Source of the DNA: Desulfobacterales bacterium
GTDB lineage: Bacteria; Desulfobacterota; Desulfobacteria; Desulfobacterales; UBA5852
Direction: 5' to 3'
Assembly (NCBI GenBank): GCA_963674755.2
Contig: CAXXVS010000003.1
Span: 672,001-736,000, forward strand
Length of the DNA: 64,000 nucleotides
Below are positions 3,218 through 57,108 of the stretch, piece after piece. A program made the position numbers and the translations under genes. The notes below the pieces were generated by a model that worked only from the letters and a program-made list of their open reading frames with translations, did not search any database and was not told where the DNA came from. Position 1 is the first letter of the stretch; each line of letters starts with the position of its first letter.

Positions 3218-5071
3218 ATGGCCCAAGTCATTGCCGATCGCCGGGATGTGGATTTTGTGCTTTACGAGCAGCTGGAGGCCGAAACCCTTTGCGGTCATGC
3301 GGCCTACCGCGAATTCAACCGCAAGACCTTCGACCTGATCATCGATGAGGCCCGCCAGCTGGCTGTCAAGGAGATCCTGCCGACTTTAGCCGAGGGGGAC
3401 CGGGAGGGGTTGCTATTTGAAAATGGGCAAGTGCGGGTGCCGGACTGTTTCCGGCGGCCCTACAAGCTGTTTATCGAGGGGGAATGGACGGCCCTCACGG
3501 CTGATCCCGACCTTGGGGGGCAGGGGCTGCCGTATCTCGTGGCCCAGGCGGTGACGGACTATCAACTGGGGGCCAACTACGCCTTTACTCTCTTCGGTTT
3601 CGGCTGCGTGGGGGCCGGTGAGATGATCGAGATCTTCGGCACGGAGGAGCAGAAGAAGCTTTTCCTGAAGAAGATGTATACCGGACAGTGGGCCGGCACC
3701 ATGGTGCTGACCGAGCCCGAAGCCGGCTCGGATGTGGGGGCCCTGACCACCTCGGCCCGTAAGCAACCCGACGGGACCTATCTGATTGCGGGCAACAAAA
3801 TCTTCATCAGCGGTGGCGAGCACGACCTGACCGAAAACATCATCCATCCGGTCCTGGCGCGCATTGAGGGGGCCCCGGCCGGCATCAAGGGCATCTCCCT
3901 GTTCATCGTTCCCAAGATTTGGGTCAACCCGGACGGTTCTTTGGGGGCACCCAACGACGTGGTCTGCACCGGCATCGAGGAGAAGATGGGCATCCATGCC
4001 AGCCCCACCTGCTCGCTATCCTTCGGCAGCAAAGGGCAGTGCCGGGGCCTGCTGCTGGGGGAGGAGCACCGGGGCATGAAGGTCATGTTTCACATGATGA
4101 ATGCGGCCCGGCTGCTGGTGGGGGCCATCGGTTTCACCAGCGCCTCGGCGGCCTACCTGTACGCCCTCAACTACGCCCGGGAGCGACGCCAGGGGCGGGA
4201 TCTGGAAAAGACCTTCGAGCCGGACGCCCCCCAGGTGCCGATCATCCGCCACCCGGATGTGCGCCGCATGCTCATGTGGATGAAGGTTCACGTGGAAGGC
4301 ATGCGCAGCCTCCTTTACTACGGGGCCCTGCTGATCGACAAGATCAAGTGCGCCGCCGACGATGCGGAACGCGCCTATCACCAGGGCCTGCTGGATTTGC
4401 TGACGCCGGTGATCAAGGCCTACTGCACCGACCGGGGCTTTGAGGTCTGCTCCGAGGCCGTCCAGGTCTACGGCGGCTACGGCTACACCCGGGAATACCC
4501 GGTGGAGCAGCTCCTGCGGGATGTGCGCATCGCTTCCATCTATGAGGGCACCAACGGGATCCAGGCCATGGACCTGCTGGGCCGTAAGATCGGCATGCAA
4601 AAGGGACAGGTCTTCATGAACTTCATGGGCGAAGTCAACCGGATCGTGGCCCGCGCCCGGGAAATAGACGCCCTGGCCGATTTGGCGGACAAGGTGGAAA
4701 AGGCCCTCAACCGGCTGGGCGAAACGGCCATGCACCTGGGGCAGACCGCCATGAGCGCACAGTTCCGCACAGCCTTCGCCCATGCCACGCCGTTCCAGGA
4801 AACCATGGGGGACGTGGTCATGGCCTGGATGCTGCTCTGGCGGGCCGTCGTTGCCGCGCCGCAGTTGGAAACGCTGCTGGCGGATCTGGATGAAGATGCC
4901 CGGCAGGAAAAAATCGCCAGCCATAGGAACGCCGCTTTCTACCACGGTCAAATTCTCTCGGCGCGCTACTTTATCAACAGCCTGCTGCCCGTAACCCACG
5001 GCAAGATGGACGCCATCCTGGCGACCGAAACCGCGGTGGTGGCTATGCCGGAGGCCGGTTTTGGCGGCTGA
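3218..5071 (+). CDS. Long acyl-CoA dehydrogenase (~617 aa, FadE5/DmdC-like)
   Basis: GTMVLTEPEAGSD, GNKIFIS, EEKMGIH, IYEGTNGIQAMDL; GGAGG upstream of ATG 3218. Confidence 0.95.
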   Translation: MAQVIADRRDVDFVLYEQLEAETLCGHAAYREFNRKTFDLIIDEARQLAVKEILPTLAEGDREGLLFENGQVRVPDCFRRPYKLFIEGEWTALTADPDLGGQGLPYLVAQAVTDYQLGANYAFTLFGFGCVGAGEMIEIFGTEEQKKLFLKKMYTGQWAGTMVLTEPEAGSDVGALTTSARKQPDGTYLIAGNKIFISGGEHDLTENIIHPVLARIEGAPAGIKGISLFIVPKIWVNPDGSLGAPNDVVCTGIEEKMGIHASPTCSLSFGSKGQCRGLLLGEEHRGMKVMFHMMNAARLLVGAIGFTSASAAYLYALNYARERRQGRDLEKTFEPDAPQVPIIRHPDVRRMLMWMKVHVEGMRSLLYYGALLIDKIKCAADDAERAYHQGLLDLLTPVIKAYCTDRGFEVCSEAVQVYGGYGYTREYPVEQLLRDVRIASIYEGTNGIQAMDLLGRKIGMQKGQVFMNFMGEVNRIVARAREIDALADLADKVEKALNRLGETAMHLGQTAMSAQFRTAFAHATPFQETMGDVVMAWMLLWRAVVAAPQLETLLADLDEDARQEKIASHRNAAFYHGQILSARYFINSLLPVTHGKMDAILATETAVVAMPEAGFGG

Positions 5072-5384
5072 TTCCCTGTACCGGCGGCCTTGAGTTTCCG
5101 ATTGGGGAACGGGCCCTTTGATCCGCATTGCTCGGACGTGCTCCACCGCAACCCTGACCAACGTCGTTCGACACCTTTTGCTGCATGTCCCTGGTGAGGG
5201 GGCTCTTTCAGGCGTGGCGCTCCGGCTGACGATGCCGGAAAGGGCCTTCTTCCCACCCCGTTCACGGGTGACAGACGCCCCAACGTTGTAACCCCATCCG
5301 CCCCGGGACGTCCTGTTTTTAATCCCCTGCGGTCTTCTTCCATACTAAATTCTGTAATTTTCATGCCTTAGCCGGACTTCGGAT

Positions 5385-5411
5385 TAAAGCCGTCCGCAAA
5401 ATGACCGATAA
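5385..5411 (+). promoter_or_regulatory. Putative sigma28 (FliA-type) promoter
   Basis: TAAA-N15-ACCGATAA vs consensus TAAA-N15-GCCGATAA, 115 bp upstream of ATG 5527. Confidence 0.55.
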
Positions 5412-5526
5412 GGGAAGCAGATGCCGACCCCTGGATGGACCGTCGCGGCCCGGATCGCGCGGGTGATTTACGATTCCCGGAAAGCGGCTCAACGTGTCAG
5501 GCAACCCCATATGATGTGAGACCTAG

Positions 5527-6912
5527 ATGCCTTTCGTGCACTTGATATTGGATGCGGAGGATTCCCCCGACGGTGGCGGGATGGATGAGGTGCTGTATCC
5601 TTCCCTGGAGGCGTTTCGTTCCGCCGGCATTACGGCCACCGGTTTTATGGTGGACACACGCGATGTGCAACGCGCCGAAGCGGTTGTACGAGCGTTGCGC
5701 ACGGACCCGGCCACCTACCTTTTGCCGATTTTTCTATCGCGGGATTTAGGTCCCCGCCTGGCCGCGCTGTGCGACGGCATACCTTCCGGTCAACAGGCGC
5801 GTGACGACCGCATGCAGCGCCTGCGGCATCGGATGCAGAAGCTTGCGCCCGAGGTGGAGCGGCAGGACCAGGATTTTCGTCTGCTGGCCTATTTATACTG
5901 TCGTCCCGAAACGGTCCTGGCCCCGATCGAGGATTGGCAGCAACGCGCCATCTACACCTATCCCCTCGCCGAAGTGCTGGCCGACGAAGGCAACCAGGCC
6001 GGCCCCTGGCTGCGACAGCTCGTCGAACGTCGCTATCTGGAACCCGCCCGTCTCGTAGGCCGGGTACGGCATTGCCCCACGTGTGAAGGCTGCCATCATA
6101 ATTACGTCGACATTTGTCCCCATTGCACCAGTATTGCCATTGCGGCCAAGCCGTTCCTGCACTGTTTTACCTGCGGCCATGTGGCCCCGGAGGAGACCTT
6201 TATCAAGGAAGGGCGTCTGGTGTGTCCCCATTGCCGGGCCAAGCTGCGTCATATCGGGGCCGACTATGATCGTCCGATGGACAACTACGCCTGCCAGGAT
6301 TGCGGCCAGAGTTTCGTGGAGCCCAATGTCGTCGCCCAGTGCCTGGGCTGCGGGGCGCGCAACGATCCTGACAAACTCATCCCGGAAGATATCCATACCT
6401 TCCAGCTGAGCGAGCGCGGCCGATCGGCCGCACGTACCGGGAGCCTGGAAGATATCTACGCCCTGTTGGACGATCTCAATTACGTGCGAACGCCTTACTT
6501 CGAATCCCTGGTGGACTGGCTGCATGCGCTTTGCCGGCGCTATGATGAAGAGGTCTTCAGCCTGCTGGGAATCCGTCTGAAGAATATCGAAACGCTTACC
6601 GATCGGCTGGGGCGTCATCGGACGGCCCAATTGATCGACGCCTTCGCGGTGCGCCTACGGGAGTCCATCCGTCTCACCGATTTGACCACCCGCGCCAGCA
6701 AGCGCAATCTCTGGATCCTGCTGCCCAAAACCGGGGCCGCCGGCCGCGATATCCTGAAGTCGCGGATTGTCGAGCTCAAAAAACAGACCCGCCAGGAGGA
6801 AGACGTGGCGCTCGAATTCGACGTGGTGGCCTACACCGCACCGGATGACATGCTGCCGGACGAGCCGTCCCGTCTGACCATGGCGCGCATCATGGGAGGG
6901 GAGGCCGCATGA
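5527..6912 (+). CDS. Degenerate REC + multi-CxxC Zn-ribbon (TackOD1-like) + degenerate GGDEF protein; putative c-di-GMP effector
   Basis: Six CxxC pairs (CPTC, CPHC, CFTC, CPHC, CQDC, CLGC); C-terminal GGDEF-like fold with RLTD (RxxD) but ASKRN in place of GGDEF. Confidence 0.75.
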   Translation: MPFVHLILDAEDSPDGGGMDEVLYPSLEAFRSAGITATGFMVDTRDVQRAEAVVRALRTDPATYLLPIFLSRDLGPRLAALCDGIPSGQQARDDRMQRLRHRMQKLAPEVERQDQDFRLLAYLYCRPETVLAPIEDWQQRAIYTYPLAEVLADEGNQAGPWLRQLVERRYLEPARLVGRVRHCPTCEGCHHNYVDICPHCTSIAIAAKPFLHCFTCGHVAPEETFIKEGRLVCPHCRAKLRHIGADYDRPMDNYACQDCGQSFVEPNVVAQCLGCGARNDPDKLIPEDIHTFQLSERGRSAARTGSLEDIYALLDDLNYVRTPYFESLVDWLHALCRRYDEEVFSLLGIRLKNIETLTDRLGRHRTAQLIDAFAVRLRESIRLTDLTTRASKRNLWILLPKTGAAGRDILKSRIVELKKQTRQEEDVALEFDVVAYTAPDDMLPDEPSRLTMARIMGGEAA

Positions 6913-8246
6913 CGGAAATATTGCGCCAGGCGGCTGAAATGCTCCTCCAACTGCTGCTCAGCCCCTTCAACCAGGGCTTTTGGGAGTTCATCCTCAAGTT
7001 TATCCCCTATGTGGTGTTTTTCGAGCTGCCCATCTACCTGTTGATTTTTGCCGGCATCGTGCGCTACGTGCTGCGCCGCTACTGGCGTGTACCCATACGG
7101 CGGCCCTACCGGCCCATGGTCAGCTGCCTGATCACCTGCTATGCGGAGGGCCGCGAGGTGGCATGTACGATCCGGTCCCTCTCGGAGCAGCTCTATGAGG
7201 GGGCCATCGAAATCATCGCCGTGGTGGATGGGGCCGCCCGGAACACGGCCACCCTGGAAGCGGCCCTGGATCTGACCGACATGGTGAATGCACGGCACGA
7301 CCGTCGCCTGACGGTCCTGCCCAAATGGCAGCGCGGCGGTCGGGTGTCCGCCCTGAATGCCGGCCTGAATATCGCCAAGGGATCGGTGGTCATGGCCCTG
7401 GACGGCGACACCTCTTTTGACAACACCATGGTGGCGTGCGCCGTACGGCATTTTGTGGACCCCAATGTGATCGGGGTAGCCGGCTGTCTGCGGGTGCGCA
7501 ACGCCGGGCGCAGCATTGTCACGCGCCTGCAGGCCATCGAATACATGCTCTCCATCCATGCCAGTAAGGTGGGGCTGAGCGAATTCAACATCGTCAACAA
7601 TATCTCGGGCGCCTTCGGGGTGTTCCGGGCGTCTTTCCTGCGGGCCATCGGGGGCTGGGACAGCGGCACGGCCGAAGACCTCGACATCACCCTGCGCATG
7701 AAGAATTATTTCGGCCGCCATCCGAATCTGCGGATCCGCTTCGAGCCGGAAGCCGTAGGGCACACCGACGCCCCGGAGACCTTGCGGGATTTTCTCAAGC
7801 AGCGTCTGCGCTGGGACGGGGATCTTTTCTACCTTTACGTGCGCAAGCATTCCATGAGTTTCACCCCCAATCTTCTGGGCTGGCGCAATCTCATCATGCA
7901 GCTATGGACCGGTATGTTTTTCCAGCTTGTGATGCCTTTCGTGATTCTGGCCTACACCCTTTACGTCATGGTGTTCTACCCACCGGCCTGGGTGCTGGCC
8001 GTGTGGGCTCTGGTCTATCTCTTCTACCTGGCGGTAACGCTGGTGTTTTTCATTATGTACATTGTTTTTCTGTCCGAACGGCCGGGACCGGATCTCAAGC
8101 TGGCGGTCTGGCTGCCGCTAGTGCCGATATTTACGTTCATCACGCGCATCTGGTGCGGTGTGTCGACCCTCAATGAAGGGCTTTTACGATCCCATCTGGA
8201 CTCCACCATGGCGCCCTGGTGGGTTTTGCGAAAGACCAAGTACTGA
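6909..8246 (+). CDS. Processive GT2 glycosyltransferase (PgaC/IcaA/chitin-synthase-like)
   Basis: DGD (DxD), TAED, QRLRW (QxxRW); N- and C-terminal TM helices; ATGA overlap with upstream gene. Confidence 0.92.
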   Translation: MTEILRQAAEMLLQLLLSPFNQGFWEFILKFIPYVVFFELPIYLLIFAGIVRYVLRRYWRVPIRRPYRPMVSCLITCYAEGREVACTIRSLSEQLYEGAIEIIAVVDGAARNTATLEAALDLTDMVNARHDRRLTVLPKWQRGGRVSALNAGLNIAKGSVVMALDGDTSFDNTMVACAVRHFVDPNVIGVAGCLRVRNAGRSIVTRLQAIEYMLSIHASKVGLSEFNIVNNISGAFGVFRASFLRAIGGWDSGTAEDLDITLRMKNYFGRHPNLRIRFEPEAVGHTDAPETLRDFLKQRLRWDGDLFYLYVRKHSMSFTPNLLGWRNLIMQLWTGMFFQLVMPFVILAYTLYVMVFYPPAWVLAVWALVYLFYLAVTLVFFIMYIVFLSERPGPDLKLAVWLPLVPIFTFITRIWCGVSTLNEGLLRSHLDSTMAPWWVLRKTKY

Positions 8247-10450
8247 TGGATTCAGGTTATCGTCATAGGGTGGCTCTTGTTTGCGGGCATATGGGGTTTT
8301 TCTTCGCCTTTTTTCTGGTCCTGTGTGTGCCGACGGCCGCCTTGGCCATGGAGACCCTTTCCTTGACGGAAATGGAGGCCGCCATCGCGGATGCCCCTCC
8401 CGTTTTGGTGGCGGCGGCCGCCCTGGAAGAAAGCCTTGCCCGTCTCGAAAGGGAGCAGGCCGCCAGCGGTTTGCAGATCCTGGGAAGCGGCGGCACGGGA
8501 TACTACAGGGAACCCACCGACGAAAACCAGGTGCGGGACTACAATCAGGCTTTTGGCCGGCTGTCACTGCGCTACCCCCTCCTGGGCACGCGGGATCAGG
8601 AGCGGTTGGACATCCTGGCCGCGGAAGCCGGGACCTGGGAGCGGCGCCAAAAGATGGCGGCGGCGCGTTTGACCGGTCTCAAGGTCCTGCGGGAAGCGTA
8701 TGTCCGCTACTGGGGCGGGGCCCGCCGTCTGGCCCTCGGCAGGGCCTTCCTGGAGGATCGGGCCTTGGTCGTCCAGGCCCTGGAAAAACGCCGGCGGGAA
8801 GGCTTTCTGCTGGATGCCGATCTGCAGGAGGTCTTGTCCGCCTTTGATCTGGCCGAGCGGCAGATGGCCAACGACCGTGCCGACCGCAAACGGGCGTTGG
8901 CCATCATCAATCTCCTGATGCGCACCCATTATTCCGCCTTCCACTGCCTGCCGCCGGTGCTGCCCCCCTCCTGCCGGGACGAGGATCGTCTGGTGGCCGC
9001 CATCTTGGATGCCCACCCTGAGATCATGCGGCTGCGCGGACGGGTTGACGAAGAGATGGGGGTCCTCAAGCTGAATCCCCTGAGCGACCTGGAGGCCCAC
9101 GCCGATTTGACGGGGTACGCCTCCCAGGATTTCCCGGTCGGGGAATCCGGCTATGGGGTGGCCCTGACCTTCCATTTTCAGATGCCGGCCGATATCGGCC
9201 AGGCGGTTTCGGCCCGCCGCCGCATGGCCCGGGCGGCCTTGCGGCAACGGCAGTTGGAACTGGAACAGCGCAGCGGCGAGCTGTTGGCCGAGGCCCGCGA
9301 GGCCTTGGCGCGTGTCGAGGCGGCCCGCGGCAACGTGGCCTTTGCCCGTCAACGAACCCGAACGGCATTGGAGCGCCTGCGGGAGAATACGCTGCGCAGA
9401 GGATTTCTGTCCGGCGATACGATCGAAACGCTGCAGCAGAGCCGATTTCGCTATTACCAGGCGGCCCTGGATCTGGTGGAAGCCGAGGTTCTCCAATTGG
9501 AGGCCCAGTCCAATCTGCTGCAATTCGGTGCCGGCGACTGCGGCGCGCTGGAGACCGCCCTGGCCGACTGGTCAGCGGATTCCGTCATCCCCAACGATCC
9601 TGCCTCTCCCGAATGGCTGGCCTGGCCCAAAGCCGCGCCCGATGACGGAGAAAAGACACCTCCGGTGGCGTATGCGGCATCCTCGGACGACATCGGGGTC
9701 TACCTCTGGCAGAGCAATGCCCTTTTGGCGTCGGAGGCCGGTCGTCCGGATTTTTGGCGCAGGCTGCGGGAAGCCGGGATCAACCGCCTGCTGATATCCC
9801 TCGACAGGGAACAGATCCGCAGGGCGGCCACCCCTGCCGGCGCCGGGCGGGTGCGTCGCTTCATTGCCGACGCCCATCGGCAAGGCGTCGCGGCGGACCT
9901 ACTGCTTGGAGAACCGAGCTGGATTTTGCCGGGGAAGCGGCGCGACCTTTTGGCCATCGTGCAGTCGCTGGAAGCCCTGCCGTTTGACGGGTTGCACCTG
10001 GATCTCGAACCGAACCAGCTGGACCCGGCGCTTTTTTCCGAAGAATACCTGTTGGCTCAGCTGGTGCGAACCATCGCCGCGGTGCAGCGGGTGAGTCCTT
10101 GGCCCGTGGGGCTCAGCGTGCATCCGCGCTATCTGGAAAAGAGCAACTTCAACTTTTGTCTGGGCTGTGCCCTGAGCAATCTCGACCTGGCCGAGGTGGT
10201 TCTCATGATCTATGTGGCGACACCGGAGCAGGCCGCCGACCGGGCGGCGCCGCTTATTGAGGCTTATCCGCAGATCCCCTTTTCCATTGCGGTCAGTGTG
10301 GAACCCTTTGTGGAGGGCGGCGCCAGCTGGGCGTCCATGGGACGGCGCAAGGTGCGTGAAGCGGGGCGCCATCTCTCCGCGGCCCTGGGTCACCATCTGA
10401 AACAACTCATCGTCCAGTCCTGGAGCGACTGGGAGCGGATGGTCCCATGA
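8246..10450 (+). CDS. TolC-like outer-membrane factor fused to C-terminal glycoside-hydrolase-like TIM barrel
   Basis: Signal peptide; helix/strand pattern of OEP repeats over ~430 aa; Pro-rich linker; FDGLHLDLEP motif; TGATG overlap at 8244-8248. Confidence 0.7.
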   Translation: MDSGYRHRVALVCGHMGFFFAFFLVLCVPTAALAMETLSLTEMEAAIADAPPVLVAAAALEESLARLEREQAASGLQILGSGGTGYYREPTDENQVRDYNQAFGRLSLRYPLLGTRDQERLDILAAEAGTWERRQKMAAARLTGLKVLREAYVRYWGGARRLALGRAFLEDRALVVQALEKRRREGFLLDADLQEVLSAFDLAERQMANDRADRKRALAIINLLMRTHYSAFHCLPPVLPPSCRDEDRLVAAILDAHPEIMRLRGRVDEEMGVLKLNPLSDLEAHADLTGYASQDFPVGESGYGVALTFHFQMPADIGQAVSARRRMARAALRQRQLELEQRSGELLAEAREALARVEAARGNVAFARQRTRTALERLRENTLRRGFLSGDTIETLQQSRFRYYQAALDLVEAEVLQLEAQSNLLQFGAGDCGALETALADWSADSVIPNDPASPEWLAWPKAAPDDGEKTPPVAYAASSDDIGVYLWQSNALLASEAGRPDFWRRLREAGINRLLISLDREQIRRAATPAGAGRVRRFIADAHRQGVAADLLLGEPSWILPGKRRDLLAIVQSLEALPFDGLHLDLEPNQLDPALFSEEYLLAQLVRTIAAVQRVSPWPVGLSVHPRYLEKSNFNFCLGCALSNLDLAEVVLMIYVATPEQAADRAAPLIEAYPQIPFSIAVSVEPFVEGGASWASMGRRKVREAGRHLSAALGHHLKQLIVQSWSDWERMVP

Positions 10451-11553
10451 AAGTACGGTTTCGATCCCCCAAACAGCAGGCACCGGAGCGCGAGCAGGGG
10501 ATGCGCGTTTCCTATGCGCCCGCCAAACGTGTGATGGCACGCTGGCGCTGGTACCTCATTTTGATTTTGGTCTCCCTGCCGCTGATCTACCTCGTCGGTC
10601 AGATTTTGTACGGCTGGCTGATCGTTTCGGCACCCGGCTATGTGACATTGCGCAAGACCCCGGTCAACAGCCAGATCGCGGGCGTCCTGCTGGATATTGA
10701 GGTGCGGACCGGCGAAACCGTGTCGGCGGGGGCGGTGCTGGCCCGGTTGCAGAACGCGGCCATGGACAGCCGCGAGGCCGTATTGACGGCGGAGCGCGAG
10801 GCCCGGGAGAAGGCTCTTGCCGCAGCGCCGAAACTTTCTTTCGACCCCGACCGGATGCAGCGTCGGTTGTCGCTGGCGGCTGAAATGGTCGCCTACCGGC
10901 GGCGCAACCGGGACGATGTGCAATTTCTTTTCGAACAGGGGGCCGCCACCCGCGCCGAACTGCAGGCGGCCGAAAACCAGTTGCACGAAGCCCTGCTCAA
11001 TTACGAAAACGTGGAAGCCGATTTGGGCCGAATGCAGGCTCAAATCGTGCGCGCCTCGGCCACAGGCGAGGATGAGCTCGTCCAGCTGCAGGTGGTGCGG
11101 GCCGAACTGGCGGCTTTGCACCAGGCCCGCGAGGCGCTCATCCTGCACAGCCCATCCGCCGGCCGGGTGTTGGAGCTCCTGGCCGAAGCGGGCCAGAGTC
11201 TCGCGCCGGGTGATCCGATTCTCTTGCTGGGCGATACCTCCCAACCGGAGATCATGGCCTACCTGGACGCCCGATACGCGGCTTACGCCAACAAGGGCCA
11301 GCCGGTGACGGTGCAGTTTCAAAACGGACATAAAGCGCCCGGTGTCGTGATTCGTGCCCCTGAAATAACACGACGTCTGCCGGCCGCCGTCAGTTCCCCC
11401 ATGGGCTCCCGGGAGAATCGCCTGCTGGTGCCGATCCAACTGTTGCCCGGCGGGACGCCGGAACCCCTTGTGGAAGGTCTTCCGGTAACGGTTCGCTTTC
11501 CTTTTCGTTTCTTCCCGGATGCCGGCAACGGCGGCCTTGCCATTTCCCCCTAG
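10447..11553 (+). CDS. HlyD-family periplasmic adaptor (membrane fusion protein)
   Basis: One TM, lipoyl half-motifs (VNSQIAGVLLDIEVRTGETVSAGAVLARL; LHSPSAGRV..GQSLAPGDPIL) around a coiled coil; ATGA overlap. Confidence 0.88.
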   Translation: MKVRFRSPKQQAPEREQGMRVSYAPAKRVMARWRWYLILILVSLPLIYLVGQILYGWLIVSAPGYVTLRKTPVNSQIAGVLLDIEVRTGETVSAGAVLARLQNAAMDSREAVLTAEREAREKALAAAPKLSFDPDRMQRRLSLAAEMVAYRRRNRDDVQFLFEQGAATRAELQAAENQLHEALLNYENVEADLGRMQAQIVRASATGEDELVQLQVVRAELAALHQAREALILHSPSAGRVLELLAEAGQSLAPGDPILLLGDTSQPEIMAYLDARYAAYANKGQPVTVQFQNGHKAPGVVIRAPEITRRLPAAVSSPMGSRENRLLVPIQLLPGGTPEPLVEGLPVTVRFPFRFFPDAGNGGLAISP

Positions 11554-12900: not shown

Positions 12901-15108
12901 ATGAGCCGAAAAGCGCTGAACATCACCATGACGAGAAACACCGCGTTTGCGCGGCACCGCCATCTTGTCGCGGCCGCCGGATTAGCGTTTGCCATTGCCG
13001 TTGTTACGGTCCACTCGGCCTGGCGCGGCGCCGACAAACCGGCGGGAACCTTTTTTGCCTTGGCAGCCCTTGCGGCGTTGCTGATCATTGTCGGCCTGGT
13101 GATATTCCGACTGTGGGCCGCCAACCGAACCTTGTCTACTGCGTTGGACCAGCAAACAACGGACCTGTTGCAAGCCAACGCCAACCTGCGGGCTGAAATC
13201 GACGAACGGCGCCAGGCGGAGCTGGCCCTGATGCGTTACAAGTCGCATCTCGAAATCCAGATCAAGGCCGGCACCTGCAACCTCCAGAAAGAGGTCATGG
13301 ACCACCGCCAGGCCCGGGAGATGCTCAGCGAATACCATCTGGCGCTGGAAGCCTCCGATGAGATGGTCACGGTCCTGGACCGCCGTTACATCTTCCGTAT
13401 GGTCAACGACGCCTACCTCAAGCGGCGCAGGACGGCCCGCGAGAAAATCATCGGCACCTCCATTGTCGATGCCATCGGCGAGGACGCCTTCCATGCCATC
13501 AAGCCCCATCTCGAGGCCTGCTTCCAGGGGGAAGTGGTGGAATATGAAATGGTGCGGGAAAACCATACCATGGGGAAGCGCCACCTGCTCGTGCGCTACT
13601 ACCCGGTCCGTTCCGCCTCCGGCCGCGTCAACCGCGTGGTGAGCGTGATCAAGGACATCACCGCCGTCAAACGGGCCGAGGAGGACCGTGAACGATTGTT
13701 CAGCCTGTCCATCGATCCCATTTGCGTGGCGGACTTCAACGGGTATTTCAAGGATCTCAATTCGGCCTGGACCCGGGTTCTCGGTTGGTCCAAGGAGGAG
13801 CTGCTCAGCATTCCCTGGTTTTCCTTCGTGCATCCCGACGATGCCGCCGCCACCGAAGCTGTTGGACGCAAACTCACCGCGGGCGAATCCGTCCGGGATT
13901 TCCGCAACCGGTATGTGGGCAAGGACGGCCGTATCTGTTGGCTCGAGTGGAATGTGACCCCCGACGTCCAGGAAGGGCTCATTTACGCCGTAGCAAGGGA
14001 TGTGACCGATCAGATCAAATCCCAGGAGAAGATCAAACTCAACGAAGAACGGCTGCAATCCCTGCTGAAGCTGAGCCAGATGAGTAGTGTGAGCGATGAA
14101 AAAATTCGCGCTTACGCCCTCGAAGAGATTGTACGCCTGACCCGCAGCAAGGCGGGCTACCTGCATTTTGTAAACGAGGAAACCCAATCGCTTGAGCTGG
14201 TGGCATGGTCCAAGGACGTCCGGCAGGCCTGTCGGGCGGACAAGACCCGTCATTATGCCCTGGACAAAGCCGGTGTGTGGGCCGACAGTGTCCGCCTGCG
14301 CCGCCCCATCATTCACAACGATTTCCAAAATGTTCCCGACAAGAAGGGCATGCCCGCAGGGCATTTCCCCATCCATCGCCATATGAGCGTTCCGGTGATG
14401 GACAACGGCCGCATCGTGGCCGTGGCCGGAGTGGGCAACAAGGAAACGGATTACAACGAATCGGACGTCAACCAATTGACATTGTTCATGACCAGCATGT
14501 GGTCCATCATCAAACAGAAGCGGGCCCAGCAGATCCTGAAGAAATACTCCATGGAGGACGGCCTGACCGCTCTGGCCAATCGCCGTCGTTTCGATGCCGC
14601 TCTGGAGAGCGAGTGGCAGCGCGCCATGCGGGAGCAAAAGCCCCTGGCCCTGATCATGATGGATATCGACTATTTCAAAGGCTTTAACGATATCTACGGC
14701 CACCAGGCCGGTGACGATTGCCTGAAGAAGGTGGCGGCCTGTCTGCGGAAGAATGTCCGCCGGGCCGGCGATCTGGTGGCGCGCTACGGCGGCGAAGAAT
14801 TCGTTGTGGTATTGCCCAACACCGATCTGGCGGGCGGGCGCGAGGTGGCCGAAACCATGCATCGCACGGTACGGGACATGAAGCTCCGTCATAAGGGCGC
14901 CCGCGGGCGGGATTATTTGACCATCAGCGCCGGCGTGGCCTCCGGCATCCCCAGGCAGGGGCGGGGGGCGGCTGAACTGCTGGAAAAGGCGGACCGGGCC
15001 CTATACCGGGCCAAAGGGGCCGGACGCGACTGTGTCAAGTCTGATGCGGGATCTACTGAGTCGCCTGGCGGACAGCCGGAGCGGATGCCGGCGGCCAACT
15101 TCGGGTAA
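12901..15108 (+). CDS. Diguanylate cyclase (2 TM-PAS-PAS-GAF-GGDEF)
   Basis: DGLTALANRR, DIDYFK, GHQAGD, RAGD I-site, RYGGEEF, ADRALY; start may be 12928. Confidence 0.93.
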   Translation: MSRKALNITMTRNTAFARHRHLVAAAGLAFAIAVVTVHSAWRGADKPAGTFFALAALAALLIIVGLVIFRLWAANRTLSTALDQQTTDLLQANANLRAEIDERRQAELALMRYKSHLEIQIKAGTCNLQKEVMDHRQAREMLSEYHLALEASDEMVTVLDRRYIFRMVNDAYLKRRRTAREKIIGTSIVDAIGEDAFHAIKPHLEACFQGEVVEYEMVRENHTMGKRHLLVRYYPVRSASGRVNRVVSVIKDITAVKRAEEDRERLFSLSIDPICVADFNGYFKDLNSAWTRVLGWSKEELLSIPWFSFVHPDDAAATEAVGRKLTAGESVRDFRNRYVGKDGRICWLEWNVTPDVQEGLIYAVARDVTDQIKSQEKIKLNEERLQSLLKLSQMSSVSDEKIRAYALEEIVRLTRSKAGYLHFVNEETQSLELVAWSKDVRQACRADKTRHYALDKAGVWADSVRLRRPIIHNDFQNVPDKKGMPAGHFPIHRHMSVPVMDNGRIVAVAGVGNKETDYNESDVNQLTLFMTSMWSIIKQKRAQQILKKYSMEDGLTALANRRRFDAALESEWQRAMREQKPLALIMMDIDYFKGFNDIYGHQAGDDCLKKVAACLRKNVRRAGDLVARYGGEEFVVVLPNTDLAGGREVAETMHRTVRDMKLRHKGARGRDYLTISAGVASGIPRQGRGAAELLEKADRALYRAKGAGRDCVKSDAGSTESPGGQPERMPAANFG

Positions 15109-19888: not shown

Positions 19889-20383
19889 TCAACAGCCTGA
19901 TAATCTGCCGTCACCGATGGCATGGATGGTCCGTTTCTCTTTGCGTGAGCGGTCGCAATACGCCGCGACGCCTTCGAGGACAAGGATATGGTGCTTGTTA
20001 ACAATGTCGATGACCTTGCATTCGAGATTGGCCAGACATTCCTTGATCAGGGGTGAGCGAACATGTTTGCCCTTCACCGGCGTCAGACGAAATTTTTCAA
20101 ATTTGTCCGTATCGGCGCCCGAACACGTTCCGATGCCGACCACCTGATCGATCAAGTCAAGCGTGGGAATGGCAATGACGCATTCCCTGGATTTGCGAAG
20201 TGCCGTATAGGAGTAGTTCCAGGGCCCGGTGGTTATGGCAAAGCGCGGCGTAAAGTCCACCACCATGGTCCAGGAGATGGTCATGATGTTGTGCTTCTCA
20301 CCATCGTGTGTCGTCACCAGGACCACCGGTCCTGATTCGATCAGCGTGAAGGCTTTGTTGGTTAGCATTTTTCTCATAGCCAT
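19889..20383 (-). CDS. Flavin reductase-like protein, possibly 3' truncated
   Basis: GPVVLVTT..NIMTISW, IGTCSGADTDKF, PLIKECLANLECKV; start 20383 or 20377. Confidence 0.8.
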   Translation of the reverse strand: MAMRKMLTNKAFTLIESGPVVLVTTHDGEKHNIMTISWTMVVDFTPRFAITTGPWNYSYTALRKSRECVIAIPTLDLIDQVVGIGTCSGADTDKFEKFRLTPVKGKHVRSPLIKECLANLECKVIDIVNKHHILVLEGVAAYCDRSRKEKRTIHAIGDGRLSGC

Positions 20384-20551
20384 GGGCGCTTTCAGGAGCT
20401 TTTCCAAACGGACATGCTATGCGGTGTAAACGAAGCATAGGGTAGTTTGGATCCGAGCGAGTTTCTTGATTACAGGACGGAAGATAGATTCAATTACTTT
20501 TCCGATCTACAGGAGAAGTTTTTCCCTTGACAACCGAAGGCCATATAGATG

Positions 20552-21046
20552 TTATGCGTTTCGTTCCTCAACTTGAATATTAAACCCTTCACTTTGTTCC
20601 GGCTCTTGAAAATACTTGGTTACTTCATTGAACATTGACTCAGTGTCATAGATAGCCCTTTCTGGTAACTCTAATCGCCTTTTTTCAATTTGTTTTAGAC
20701 AAATATCATCGCTCACATTGAGGTAGATAAGTTCGTTTGGGGCATTAGCTTCAGAAATAAGTTCTTTAAACCATTTTCGTTGATTTACAGTATTTGCTGG
20801 AAAATCCATTACAACATCTGTACCCGTTTTCAGTATATTCACAACATGCGCCTTAATTAGCGGTTTCAATAAAGATGAATAATGGAGATAATCTGCAAAT
20901 GAAGTGATTTGACTGGGGTAAAGTGCCGACAACCATTCGTCCTCAGAGATCAGTACAGCATTGCGATCCTGAGATACTTGCTTTGATTTTGTTGATTTTC
21001 CAGCTCCCATCTTTCCAGAGAACAATATCAATGTTCCTATTTTCAT
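20552..21046 (-). CDS. P-loop kinase / AAA_33-like ATP-binding protein (AT-rich)
   Basis: Walker A GKMGAGKST, ISEDEW, VVMDFPANT; TAAGGA RBS; much lower GC than flanks. Confidence 0.85.
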   Translation of the reverse strand: MKIGTLILFSGKMGAGKSTKSKQVSQDRNAVLISEDEWLSALYPSQITSFADYLHYSSLLKPLIKAHVVNILKTGTDVVMDFPANTVNQRKWFKELISEANAPNELIYLNVSDDICLKQIEKRRLELPERAIYDTESMFNEVTKYFQEPEQSEGFNIQVEERNA

Positions 21047-54356: not shown

Positions 54357-55019
54357 TCAGGTTTTCCGGGCGGCCATGAAGTCGAGGGCTGCCATGGCGC
54401 GCGAGAAGACGGTTTGCTGGATTTCAGCGATTTCCTGGGCCGTATAGCCTTCCATGCCGACCCGGCGCATGACGGTGGCCCGGCCGGCGCGCCAAACCAT
54501 GACCTGGCCGATGAAGAGCACGGCTTGCAGGCTGCACTGCCGTTCGTCGGTCTCTCCGGTGATGGCGGCGATCAAAATGGCGAAAGCGTTGAGAATGCGT
54601 TCCATTACCCGTGGGTAGATCACGTCAAAAGCCGCCGAGGGCGCCATCTGTTCCCGCAGGATGATCTGGGAATACGGCATGGTGCCGGGGTCGCCGCACA
54701 TCACGGTCACTATGGTGGAAAGTCCATTTCGCAGCAGGTCGCGTGCTGTTTCGGCATCCAGACTTGTTTCCGCCAAATCCTGGATTTTGGTCAGAAACGG
54801 ATCGAGCCGGGTGCCGAGAACATCAGCGATATGCTCGACTGCGGCCAGATAAAGCCCCTCCTTGTTGCGGAAGTAATAGGGGATGGCCGAGAGGTTGACC
54901 CGGGCCTTGTCCGCCAGCATGCGGGTGGTAGTGGCATTGAACCCGTTGGCCGCGAAAATGTCGATTGCCGCCTGAATCAGGCGCTCCCGGGCATCCGGTT
55001 TGGTGTCAGATTCGGTCAT
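54357..55019 (-). CDS. cecR: TetR-family regulator, CecR/YbiH-like
   Basis: TetR HTH (AIPYYFRNKEGLY), LREQMAPSAAF; heads a ybhGFSR-like operon. Confidence 0.85.
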   Translation of the reverse strand: MTESDTKPDARERLIQAAIDIFAANGFNATTTRMLADKARVNLSAIPYYFRNKEGLYLAAVEHIADVLGTRLDPFLTKIQDLAETSLDAETARDLLRNGLSTIVTVMCGDPGTMPYSQIILREQMAPSAAFDVIYPRVMERILNAFAILIAAITGETDERQCSLQAVLFIGQVMVWRAGRATVMRRVGMEGYTAQEIAEIQQTVFSRAMAALDFMAARKT

Positions 55020-55051
55020 GGTGGGCTGTCCTTTCGGATGAAGTCCGCCAG

Positions 55052-55090
55052 ATAATAATTCATACGTTTGATTAAGTCAAACGTATGAAT
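55052..55090 (-). promoter_or_regulatory. Sigma70 promoter overlapped by perfect 14-bp inverted repeat (TetR operator)
   Basis: Minus strand TTGACT-N17-TATTAT; ATTCATACGTTTGA-N5-TCAAACGTATGAAT at 55058-55090. Confidence 0.85.
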
Positions 55091-55849
55091 AAAATATTGA
55101 CGATATTCGGCATTCCCCGGTTATACACAACCCGATTCACCGGCTTCAAAGCCTGTGATTCATCCCTCCCCATGTGCCGGGCAAATCACAAACATTCTGG
55201 TTTTAATATGGGGTATGGCCCCTATTCGGTTGCCCACCGGCAAGGATGTGCGTGGTCATGTCCTGTACCCGAGCATTCTCCTATAGGAGCGTCGGACAGG
55301 GTGCCTATCAGGCGCATATGGTATGAGTTCCGGGTCCGACCTCCAAGTGCTCATGGTCGCAAAGGTTGATCGCCCCTGTCATAAAGGATTCCTGTTCGCC
55401 GAAAACGCTTTAAGTGTAAGCTCAAAAGTGCTATGGGCAGCGTGATGCATGCTGCGGTCGAAGCACTGTTGATCTAAGGGAAAAGTACTTCTGCCTCCAT
55501 TCGTCAGCTTCAAAGCCGGTGATTCGTCCTTTTGCCATCCCCAAGTGCTGGGACAACTCACAGACCCATTGTTTTCGAAAATTTATGGTTACACCCGTTG
55601 CGGACAAGCCACGCCGGTGTTGTGTTGCCGATGGCCTTTGTTGCTCGGCGCATTGCGGAGAACTTTCGTGGCACCCATGGCATGGAGGTGCCGGGTCACA
55701 ACCGCATTGGCGAAAGGCGACAACAATGGATGGAAGCTAGTATGGCGGCGGCTCTTCTGTTGTCCAGCGAGTTGTCGCACGAATAGGAATATATGCGGTT
55801 TAGCAAAGGATGTATGGGAGAAACCAGACATCAGAAAGAGGAGGGGAAT

Positions 55850-57108
55850 GTGTTGAAAGCGCTTATGATTCGGGTGAATGTGATTGCTCTTGTTGTCATT
55901 GTGTCTCTATTATTCGGTGCCGGTCCCGGAGAAGCGTCGGAAGTCAGCAATGCGGAAATCCTGAAGCGGCTGGAAGCGATGGGGCAGCGAATTCAGGCGA
56001 TGGACGCCGAGATCAAAACCCTCAAACAGGAAAACAAGGAACTCAAGGCCGAGCTCAAACAGGTTAGCCCGGGCCAGGCTGAGCGCCAACCGGTTGTGGC
56101 GGCCACCGGGGCGGAAGGACCTCCGGTGAACATGACACCTCTGATCGCGGATAAGCCATTCGAGGGGGGCCTTCAGGTAGATGCTGAACTTCTTCAGCTC
56201 ACGGTGGATCAGGATTCCGTAGCCTACGCCGGCTATCTATCCGGCTATACAGCACTACGGCCTCAATCGATGCCGGCCAGAATACGGAGTTTGACGAGAA
56301 TACCGCCTGGCGCTTCGGCCTGTCCTACATTGGGCCCACCGGTTGGGACGGAGGCCTGAAATATATGCACTTCAATACCTCGGGGGACAGTTCCCTCGGG
56401 GAGAGAGGCGTGGACAACGACAATGTATGGGTGAACCATCTGGATCGCTCCCTGGCGGACGTCGTCCTAAACAACACCTTTGACGACGGGGTGGCCGATT
56501 ATGCGTCTCAGGATCTTAAAATCGGTTTTGATGTATGGGACGCTGAGCTGGGACATACCTTCCGCACGAGTGACCACACGGCCCTGCGCCTTTTCGGCGG
56601 CCTCCGCCATGTCGACCTGAACAACGACTCTACGATTCAGTACGAAAACTGGGAAAGCGCCCTTCATCAAGTGGCCGTTATCGAGGACCGTCTGGACGTG
56701 GAAGGGTATGGCGCCCGCATCGGCGGTTCCGTTATGTGGGATATTTACGATACCGGTCTCAGCGTCAATTTCGGCTCGGCGCTCTCTCTTGTGTATGCCG
56801 ATTTTGATCTTTCCCGCAGCGACAACTACCAGTCGAGTGCTTCCACAGGCACTACCACAGGCACGCGCAGCATAACTTCGGATACGGAATCCCTGCTGCC
56901 CATCGTCGATATCAATCTCGGCCTGAAATACCGGTACCAATCGTTTTTCGTTGAAGGCGGCTACCTCCTTTCCTACTGGTTCAACGGCGATCGGCAGTAT
57001 CAGGTTGTGGGTCATGACGATGTCGATGACACGACGAGCCCCTACGGTTACGAAAAATCGGACATTAGCTTTCACGGATGGACCCTGAAGGCGGGGGTTG
57101 TATTTTAA
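55850..57108 (+). pseudogene. Outer-membrane beta-barrel porin (Lpg1974/MOMP-like) with N-terminal coiled coil, split by a 1-nt frameshift
   Basis: GAGGAGG + GTG, signal peptide, coiled coil; alternate frame reads STTASIDAGQNTEFDENTAWRFGLSY..GLKY into ORF 56365; terminal beta-signal LKAGVVF. Confidence 0.75.

Follow-up and report, generated by a model that had tools for sequence, protein, structure and literature searches.

How a bacterial polysaccharide crosses the cell envelope when its synthase is accompanied by neither a pump nor a porin is the question raised by a four-gene unit in a Desulfobacterales bacterium. The unit lies at positions 5527 to 11553 of the window, i.e., the whole stretch of 64,000 nucleotides that was analyzed (GenBank assembly GCA_963674755.2, contig CAXXVS010000003.1, positions 672,001 to 736,000). 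An earlier note, made from the sequence alone, had read it as a cyclic di-GMP (c-di-GMP)-gated glycan synthase with a HlyD-type adaptor and a TolC-like channel, the synthase itself being the inner-membrane partner of the channel. Here, we report that three of the genes are, by sequence comparison, orthologues of mxdABC of Shewanella oneidensis, and that the remaining gene encodes a TolC-family outer-membrane factor fused to a (beta/alpha)8 barrel with invariant Asp and Glu residues at the catalytic position of glycoside hydrolase family 18 (GH18). This fusion gene is what is new. The unit is not a new kind of system: three of its genes come from a described operon, and the mechanism is already in print as a proposal. 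It is fairly probable that this mxdABC-type operon, together with the TolC-barrel gene, works as a self-contained, c-di-GMP-gated machine for polysaccharide synthesis and export.

The unit consists of four + strand open reading frames (ORFs) whose junctions, read from the sequence, overlap (ATGA, TGATG and ATGA); all coordinates below that concern the unit are on this strand. Gene 1 (5527..6912, 461 amino acids) encodes a soluble, predicted c-di-GMP effector, the orthologue of MxdA; gene 2 (6909..8246, 445 amino acids) encodes a membrane-bound processive synthase of glycosyltransferase family 2 (GT2), the orthologue of MxdB; gene 3 (8246..10450) encodes the TolC-hydrolase-fold fusion, with 734 amino acids from its ATG or 743 from an alternative in-frame GTG at 8219; and gene 4 (10447..11553, 368 amino acids) encodes a HlyD-type periplasmic adaptor, the orthologue of MxdC. 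The earlier note had described four translationally coupled genes at these positions, and the ORFs and junctions are as it read them; its inventory of effector, GT2, TolC-like/hydrolase fusion and HlyD is also supported. None of the four proteins matched an ABC, RND, MFS, Wzx/Wzy, deacetylase or TPR-porin family in these databases. The G+C content of the unit (0.61-0.66) is in line with the window. The unit is not a chance arrangement, since it was found again at dozens of loci across phyla (the closest, L001, is 98% identical in gene 2). Likewise, the gene 3 fusion is not an assembly artefact, because contigs of all four runs compared, one of which (X1) may be the source of the window itself, cover 8200-10500 without an indel, two of them in one piece.

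Gene 3 comprises, in this order, a signal-like hydrophobic N-terminus, an outer-membrane factor (8351..9526, residues 36-427), a flexible linker and a TIM barrel (9692..10438, residues 483-731). The outer-membrane factor was recognized by Pfam (OEP, 36.5 bits versus a cut-off of 22), by profile search (OprJ, TolC and MtrE) and by Foldseek (E = 6e-14 and TMt 0.74 to E. coli TolC, 1ek9). In the structure model, built from 121 sequences (pLDDT 91.6, pTM 0.68), its protomer has the four beta strands and long helical hairpins that define the TolC family, and the linker is a low-confidence stretch of about 50 residues. Besides gene 3, the genome of the window (G000) contains some 14 OEP genes (29 matches, most of them paired), and gene 3 is therefore taken to be a dedicated channel.

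The C-terminal domain of gene 3 has no Pfam match of its own. Its model is an eight-stranded barrel resembling those of glycoside hydrolases, and profile search retrieved PDB 10yv, a 'putative GH97' (E = 4e-5), and chitinase 3ian (E = 0.31). Foldseek retrieved Cwp19 (E = 4e-5), GH18 chitinase 6k7z (4e-4) and O-GlcNAcase (4e-4), in a range from 4e-5 to 6e-4; the query here was the whole gene 3 model rather than the barrel alone, so TolC dominates the ranks. In the Atlas, the barrel fell among 30 unnamed clusters (best 0.96), the nearest named clusters being GH18 at 0.90. The end of strand 4 carries the motif H584-x-D586-x-E588 (9995-10009): strand 582-586 is followed by E588, as in the GH18 catalytic-Glu position, and D586 and E588 align with the catalytic DxE of 3ian (FDGLDIDLE), with His584 in place of the preceding Asp. 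The full motif is D-G-L-H-L-D-L-E versus DxxDxDxE in GH18, and the His is present in 110 of the 121 sequences. D586, E588 and E686 are invariant in all 121; L585 and S684 are further invariant residues, W488 is invariant or nearly so, and R628, M654 and Y656 are nearly invariant. On this sequence and model evidence, the barrel may represent a new family of hydrolases.

It might instead be that tripartite export is correct and that the barrel, rather than being a hydrolase, serves to bind the chain, as a guide or anchor, or modifies it in some other way. The incomplete GH18 motif (H584), the weak, below-cut-off Pfam GH18 matches in 3 of 51 family members and the weak structural E-values to hydrolases would fit such a role. 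The invariant D586, E588 and E686, with their nearly invariant companions, form an active-site pattern and not that of a dead GH18 lectin, and we consider this alternative very improbable. The barrel is carried by 380 representatives at 50% identity. The TolC part is also present in 121 of its best 150 relatives and absent in 29, some of which are fragments and some of which have a signal-like N-terminus of their own. In two near relatives, L001 (at ~9915) and protein P0190, the barrel is frameshifted. Phase variation was considered and rejected for these cases: the frameshifts are at different places and the four runs show no indel, which makes assembly error likelier.

The other three genes have counterparts in the mxd operon of S. 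oneidensis. MxdA affects c-di-GMP levels, MxdB is a membrane GT2, MxdC is efflux-pump-like and MxdD is hypothetical (PMC3691769). Mutants in mxdB form no three-dimensional biofilm, and mxdA and mxdB mutants do not aggregate (PMC3691769). MxdA is reported to bind c-di-GMP and to have both the cyclase PdgA and CheY3 as interaction partners (Gambari 2019, as given in PMC7666153 and PMC11395469). We located the mxd locus by means of the published promoter primers (PMC3691769): of the 148 genomes in the genus to which genome G681 belongs, one had an exact primer match, and in its locus L054 the four primer cores tested all map upstream of four ORFs (462, 442, 351 and 118 amino acids). A primer core searched for in the metagenome contigs had no match there. 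Gene 1 is 31% identical to MxdA over 430 amino acids (E = 1e-68), gene 2 is 49% identical to MxdB over 419 (E = 3e-152) and gene 4 is 28% identical to MxdC over 365 (E = 5e-29). For each of MxdA, MxdB and MxdC, the sole match in G000 is at this locus and is a reciprocal best match. By these comparisons, genes 1, 2 and 4 (hereafter A, B and C) are orthologues of mxdABC. The earlier note, which knew of no characterized system with this layout, is thus not supported on this point, three of the four genes belonging to a described operon (PMC3691769, PMC7666153).

Like mxdABCD of S. oneidensis MR-1 (SO4180 onward), the unit has A directly before B, lacks a pump and has an effector composed of TackOD1, a dead GGDEF domain and an RxxD motif. 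Unlike it, the unit carries the 734-amino acid TolC-barrel gene between B and C; this gene has no counterpart in L054, and the Shewanella-type genomes tested lack the barrel. S. oneidensis, in turn, has MxdD (118 amino acids), for which tblastn gave no match in G000 or in 19 loci, including other Shewanella/Vibrio-type ones. The unit is therefore filed as an mxdABC-type variant and not as mxdABCD.

What gates the synthase is suggested by gene 1, which has no hydrophobic segment by hydropathy. Pfam recognized the multi-zinc-ribbon domain TackOD1 (PF18551, residues 112-294) with 219 bits versus a cut-off of 32, followed by a weak GGDEF match (residues ~315-440) with a degenerate active site, i.e., a catalytically dead GGDEF-fold domain. 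TackOD1 matched in all 49 family members and GGDEF in 44. The family profile was aligned to RQSD...YGGEEF of PDB 3ign. The I-site is kept as R382-L-T-D385 (6670..6681), with D385 invariant and R382 conserved in at least 90% of the 49 sequences, and the active-site position reads ASKRN and is degenerate in every aligned relative shown. With the GG(D/E)EF site lost, gene 1 was rejected as an active diguanylate cyclase; with the I-site kept, the reading of gene 1 as a c-di-GMP effector, already made in the earlier note, is upheld as a prediction from sequence. A degenerate REC domain at the N-terminus, suspected by eye, was also rejected, as none of the 49 members matched Response_reg. The only paper on TackOD1 that we found, an archaeal census, leaves the function of this domain open in its available portion (PMC5847659). 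Several variants of gene 1 were seen. On an alphaproteobacterial plasmid (L033, 5629-6914) it is split into a TackOD1 ORF and a 113-amino acid GGDEF-like ORF. In one genus (L072, L073 and L076; genomes G250, G095 and G190), MxdA-like genes stand alone, without a synthase, and that of L073 is in two pieces around a 453-amino acid ORF that appears transposase-like by eye.

Gene 2 contains the GT2 motifs DGD167, TAED257 and QRLRW302, an N-terminal hydrophobic segment (residues 27-55) and a C-terminal hydrophobic region (328-418). The nearest fold to its model, built from 96 sequences (pLDDT 93), is hyaluronan synthase (HAS; E = 6e-16, TMq 0.64), followed by cellulose and chitin synthases. The profile search concurs with this ranking, except for an archaeal mannosyltransferase at the top, and by both methods HAS is placed above BcsA; identity to HAS is 15-17%. 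Judged by motifs and model, gene 2 is a processive GT2 with the hyaluronan/chitin/cellulose synthase fold. Neither Pfam and NCBIfam nor the model revealed a PilZ or other C-terminal regulatory domain, and the modeled chain ends about 20 residues past the last long helix. The best NCBIfam match was PgaC_IcaA (144.9 bits, E = 3e-42) and the second was NodC (75 bits). PgaABCD/IcaA is thus the best named sequence family, as HAS is the best fold, but the score is far below the PgaC cut-off of 422.3 and the partners PgaA, PgaB and PgaD are missing from the unit, and assignment as PgaC was rejected on these grounds. The PgaC/NodC/HAS-like synthase and the GH18/O-GlcNAcase-like barrel are weak hints by which we lean slightly towards a product containing N-acetylglucosamine.

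The small synthase of 445 residues with its compact membrane part, the NodC match and the lack of a co-polymerase such as PgaD or BcsB would also suit a different product, namely a short oligosaccharide or glycolipid. Such a product (NodC-like, or Alg8/PgaC-like of limited processivity) would be trimmed by the barrel in the periplasm and leave through adaptor and TolC as a small molecule or signal. This possibility is unlikely: I-site effector control is typical of matrix polymers, the nearest folds are hyaluronan synthases, which polymerize and translocate alone, and the defects of mxd mutants in aggregation and biofilm formation are of the matrix type (PMC3691769).

Gene 4 matched HlyD-type families in Pfam and NCBIfam. 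It consists of a cytoplasmic tail of 36 amino acids, a membrane segment (residues 33-60), lipoyl halves, an alpha-hairpin and a beta-barrel, and the tail is its most conserved region (mean 0.58 versus 0.35 for the hairpin). Adaptors bind TolC through an R-L-S motif at the hairpin tip. The tip of gene 4, L161-x-x-QGAAT168, keeps two of the three positions (L161 and T168).

Do these genes belong together elsewhere? We examined the best 80 of 415 metagenome stretches encoding a gene 2 relative, a sample that is biased to close relatives and not dereplicated. Gene 1 is directly before gene 2 in all 73 loci with at least 400 bases upstream, and a TolC gene is directly after gene 2 in 57 of the 58 loci with at least 600 bases downstream, a count that leaves out loci of other gene order (the exception is L148). 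All five domains occur in 46 of the 80 loci, and in 34 of the 37 with full room; the co-occurrence on which the earlier reading depended was thus found by the neighborhood survey. The 46 complete loci comprise 39 with the order A-B-TolC/barrel-C and gene 3 fused, 3 in which TolC and barrel are encoded separately, and 4 with the order TolC/barrel-C-A-B. In two gene orders, then, translational coupling joins TolC and adaptor to the synthase. Among 401 genomes of the phylum of the window, TackOD1 was over the cut-off in 11 and the barrel was present in 8; these 8 are exactly the genomes with TackOD1 beside this GT2, and the other 3, of one genus, have gene 1 alone. Gene 2 relatives at E = 1e-60 or better occurred in 5 of 301 Pseudomonadota genomes and in 11 of 151 in the order of G681. 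A search of genome contigs with gene 2 alone gave four loci, of which one was a weak, unrelated match. The four genes, arranged as in the window, were also found in two Pseudomonadaceae genomes and on an Aeromonas caviae plasmid. The unit moves, as it is complete (L032, 5563-11385) on this 29-kb mobilizable plasmid, where it lies beside recombinase and toxin-antitoxin genes.

At 15 further loci, A-B-C occurs without gene 3 (Shewanella, Vibrio, Photobacterium, Plesiomonas, an alphaproteobacterial plasmid and further relatives). None of the five A-B-C genomes searched yielded the barrel, and the TolC-family genes that they have at other places are all of generic type. A quick tree was computed for 45 synthases, with SH-aLRT as the sole support measure, PgaC as a long-branched outgroup and L062 and L065 omitted. 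The 13 synthases that lack gene 3 group in a single clade (96), nested within the gene 3-bearing ones, and gene 3 was therefore probably lost once, in the Shewanella/Vibrio-type copies. Two distant loci counted as carrying gene 3, L069 and L070, have the barrel and no significant TolC match, and their label is uncertain. In L062 (genome G724), the synthase gene is broken by one TAG. Short repeated blocks fill the space between B and C in L064 (8743-9086) and L066 (9008-9253), the place that gene 3 occupies at other loci.

The claim that no conserved pump lies in or beside the unit also stood. Pfam searches of 101 of the 119 flanking ORFs at 21 genome loci revealed no conserved pump, the neighbors being unrelated and non-recurring, and neither did searches of 61 of the 91 flanking ORFs at complete metagenome loci (dereplicated at 70%); flanking ORFs were chosen by length, a criterion under which genes may be overlooked where the DNA is GC-rich. 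This result bears on a further explanation, in which adaptor and TolC are the partners of an ABC, RND or MFS transporter encoded elsewhere, together secreting a protein (an adhesin, a lectin or a glycosylated target of the synthase), and the GT2 product exits otherwise. HlyD and TolC proteins normally serve pumps, the genome of the window has many efflux systems, and scattered transporters occur beside L069, L075, L077 and L143; a comparable option is kept open for a mixed-linkage beta-glucan (MLG) of Sinorhizobium meliloti (PMC13438883). However, the neighborhood of the unit contains no conserved transporter or adhesin, and the transporters present mostly have their own adaptor. The fusion of a glycoside hydrolase-like barrel to the channel and the coupling of TolC and adaptor to the synthase in two gene orders also make such an indirect arrangement improbable.

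Two published systems resemble the unit, and the tripartite idea of synthase, HlyD and TolC, inferred in the earlier note, had already appeared for BgsAB-TolC (PMC13438883) and XcsAB-TolC (PMC8892547, PMC12430437). In S. meliloti, disruption of tolC abolishes MLG, a glucan of alternating beta-1,3 and beta-1,4 linkages, and a BgsA-BgsB-TolC tripartite model was proposed (PMC13438883). Like the unit, this system combines a GT2, a HlyD-like membrane fusion protein and TolC, is controlled by c-di-GMP (through an effector that is predicted in our case) and has no TPR-porin or pump (PMC13438883). Whereas BgsA binds c-di-GMP by its own C-terminal domain, the unit has a separate effector and gene 2 has no such domain. 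BgsAB uses an unlinked housekeeping TolC, and no fused hydrolase is described in the available part of the paper (PMC13438883). The two systems are compared here by their described components. For cyanobacterial cellulose, an XcsAB-TolC model (Maeda et al. 2018, as reviewed in PMC8892547 and PMC12430437) includes a synthase, a HlyD-like protein, TolC and a glycanase, XcsC, the same set of functions as in the unit, where that of the glycanase is predicted. XcsA, however, is a PilZ-bearing cellulose synthase, whereas gene 2 lacks PilZ; TolC is outside the xcs operon and the endoglucanase is a separate protein, whereas the hydrolase-fold barrel of the unit is fused to TolC. The barrel is likened to XcsC by its predicted function. 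Neither the TolC-barrel fusion nor a tripartite reading of mxd was described in the literature searched, which consisted mostly of the main texts of open-access papers.

The mechanism that we favor, with the synthase as the inner-membrane partner of the channel, is an inference here as it is in the BgsAB-TolC and XcsAB-TolC papers. Gene 1 would bind c-di-GMP, as reported for MxdA, and likely switch on gene 2, which lacks its own sensor domain. Gene 2, judging from its family, likely builds a polymer from a UDP-sugar and drives it through the inner membrane, and with energy coming from polymerization no pump would be required. Gene 4 likely forms the usual adaptor ring, and may grip the synthase through the conserved cytoplasmic tail and the membrane helix, and the channel through the tip of the hairpin. 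Gene 3, as its modeled fold indicates, would be the outer-membrane tube. The C-terminus of TolC leaves at the equatorial domain, and the tethered barrel is therefore likely periplasmic. There it likely cuts the chain, for release, length setting or clearing of strays, a job comparable to those of BcsZ, AlgL, PgaB/PelA and XcsC in other systems. The Shewanella/Vibrio-type copies that lost gene 3 would likely borrow a housekeeping TolC, as BgsAB does. The contact of synthase, adaptor and channel, the formation of a polymer and the hydrolase activity are all predictions from sequences and models.

Several points weigh against this mechanism. The barrel scores below the Pfam GH18 cut-off (best 20.4 bits versus 29.6) and has His for one Asp of the GH18 motif, the Arg of the R-L-S tip motif is not conserved, and the 15 A-B-C loci manage without gene 3, so that the barrel is dispensable there. 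The mechanism also leaves unexplained how a single small synthase could make a seal with a hexameric adaptor. Potential pumps or porins are found at single loci: an ABC ATPase in L069, immediately upstream and on the strand of the unit, a TetR-adaptor-AcrB set downstream in L143, divergent ABC genes in L075 and L077 (in L075 with their own adaptor), an ABC importer upstream in L002 and an adjoining pga operon in L060. In addition, the Mxd polymer, identified in none of the papers examined, is called putative (PMC3691769, PMC7666153), an indirect role of TolC in MLG was not excluded by its authors (PMC13438883), and the XcsAB-TolC model is described as lacking experimental validation, its genes being unlinked (PMC12430437).

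Direct conduction of polysaccharide by TolC is an open question in the papers on both proposed cases (PMC13438883, PMC12430437), and the unit has a dedicated TolC whose gene is translationally coupled to those of synthase and adaptor on either side and which carries a hydrolase-fold domain seen only with this synthase (the 8 of 401 genomes mentioned above). This is genomic evidence for a direct role and offers a compact four-gene test object, and the barrel offers a handle on polymer identity. The long-unexplained Shewanella mxd operon is tied to this class of export, with the prediction that Mxd needs a housekeeping TolC. A bolder version, which we hold tentatively and at somewhat less than even confidence, is that ancestral Mxd was a pump-free trans-envelope glycan extruder in which the polymerase replaces ABC or RND pumps and the TolC trimer has an enzyme tethered to each of its three protomers. 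These enzymes, from a glycoside hydrolase family without a name so far (a GH18-superfamily barrel with H-x-D-x-E), would process a polymer of undescribed structure. If true, this would be the first system, complete in four genes, in which the threading of polysaccharide through TolC can be reconstituted and seen.

Several minor observations concern the surroundings. The upstream neighbor of the unit is an acyl-CoA dehydrogenase-like ORF, as read from the sequence without a domain scan, and a promoter/terminator scan of 5050-5560 gave no sites. An alpha/beta hydrolase recognized by Pfam (11519/11638-12553, + strand) directly follows gene 4, outside the conserved unit. A PAS-PAS-GAF-GGDEF protein (12901-15108, + strand), 1.3 kb downstream, has an intact GGEEF site and N-terminal membrane segments and is a candidate local source of c-di-GMP; it was not a conserved neighbor in the loci scanned. 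The G+C content of the window dips to 0.44 at 20001-21000 and to 0.51 at 55001-56000, versus ~0.61. In L060, the pga-type operon, with a PgaA barrel and a PgaC-like synthase (4232-6634 and 1027-2277), is directly downstream of A-B-C on the same strand. Sugar-related neighbors were seen at single loci (L075, 7981-8985; L077, 8194-9282; L033, 9273-10283; L096, 1-1077; L155, 2046-3137; L098, 11104-12174), including an NAD-dependent epimerase/dehydratase between A and B, GalE after C, UDP-glucose pyrophosphorylase, GH3 and an acyltransferase, and they possibly hint at lineage-specific polymers.

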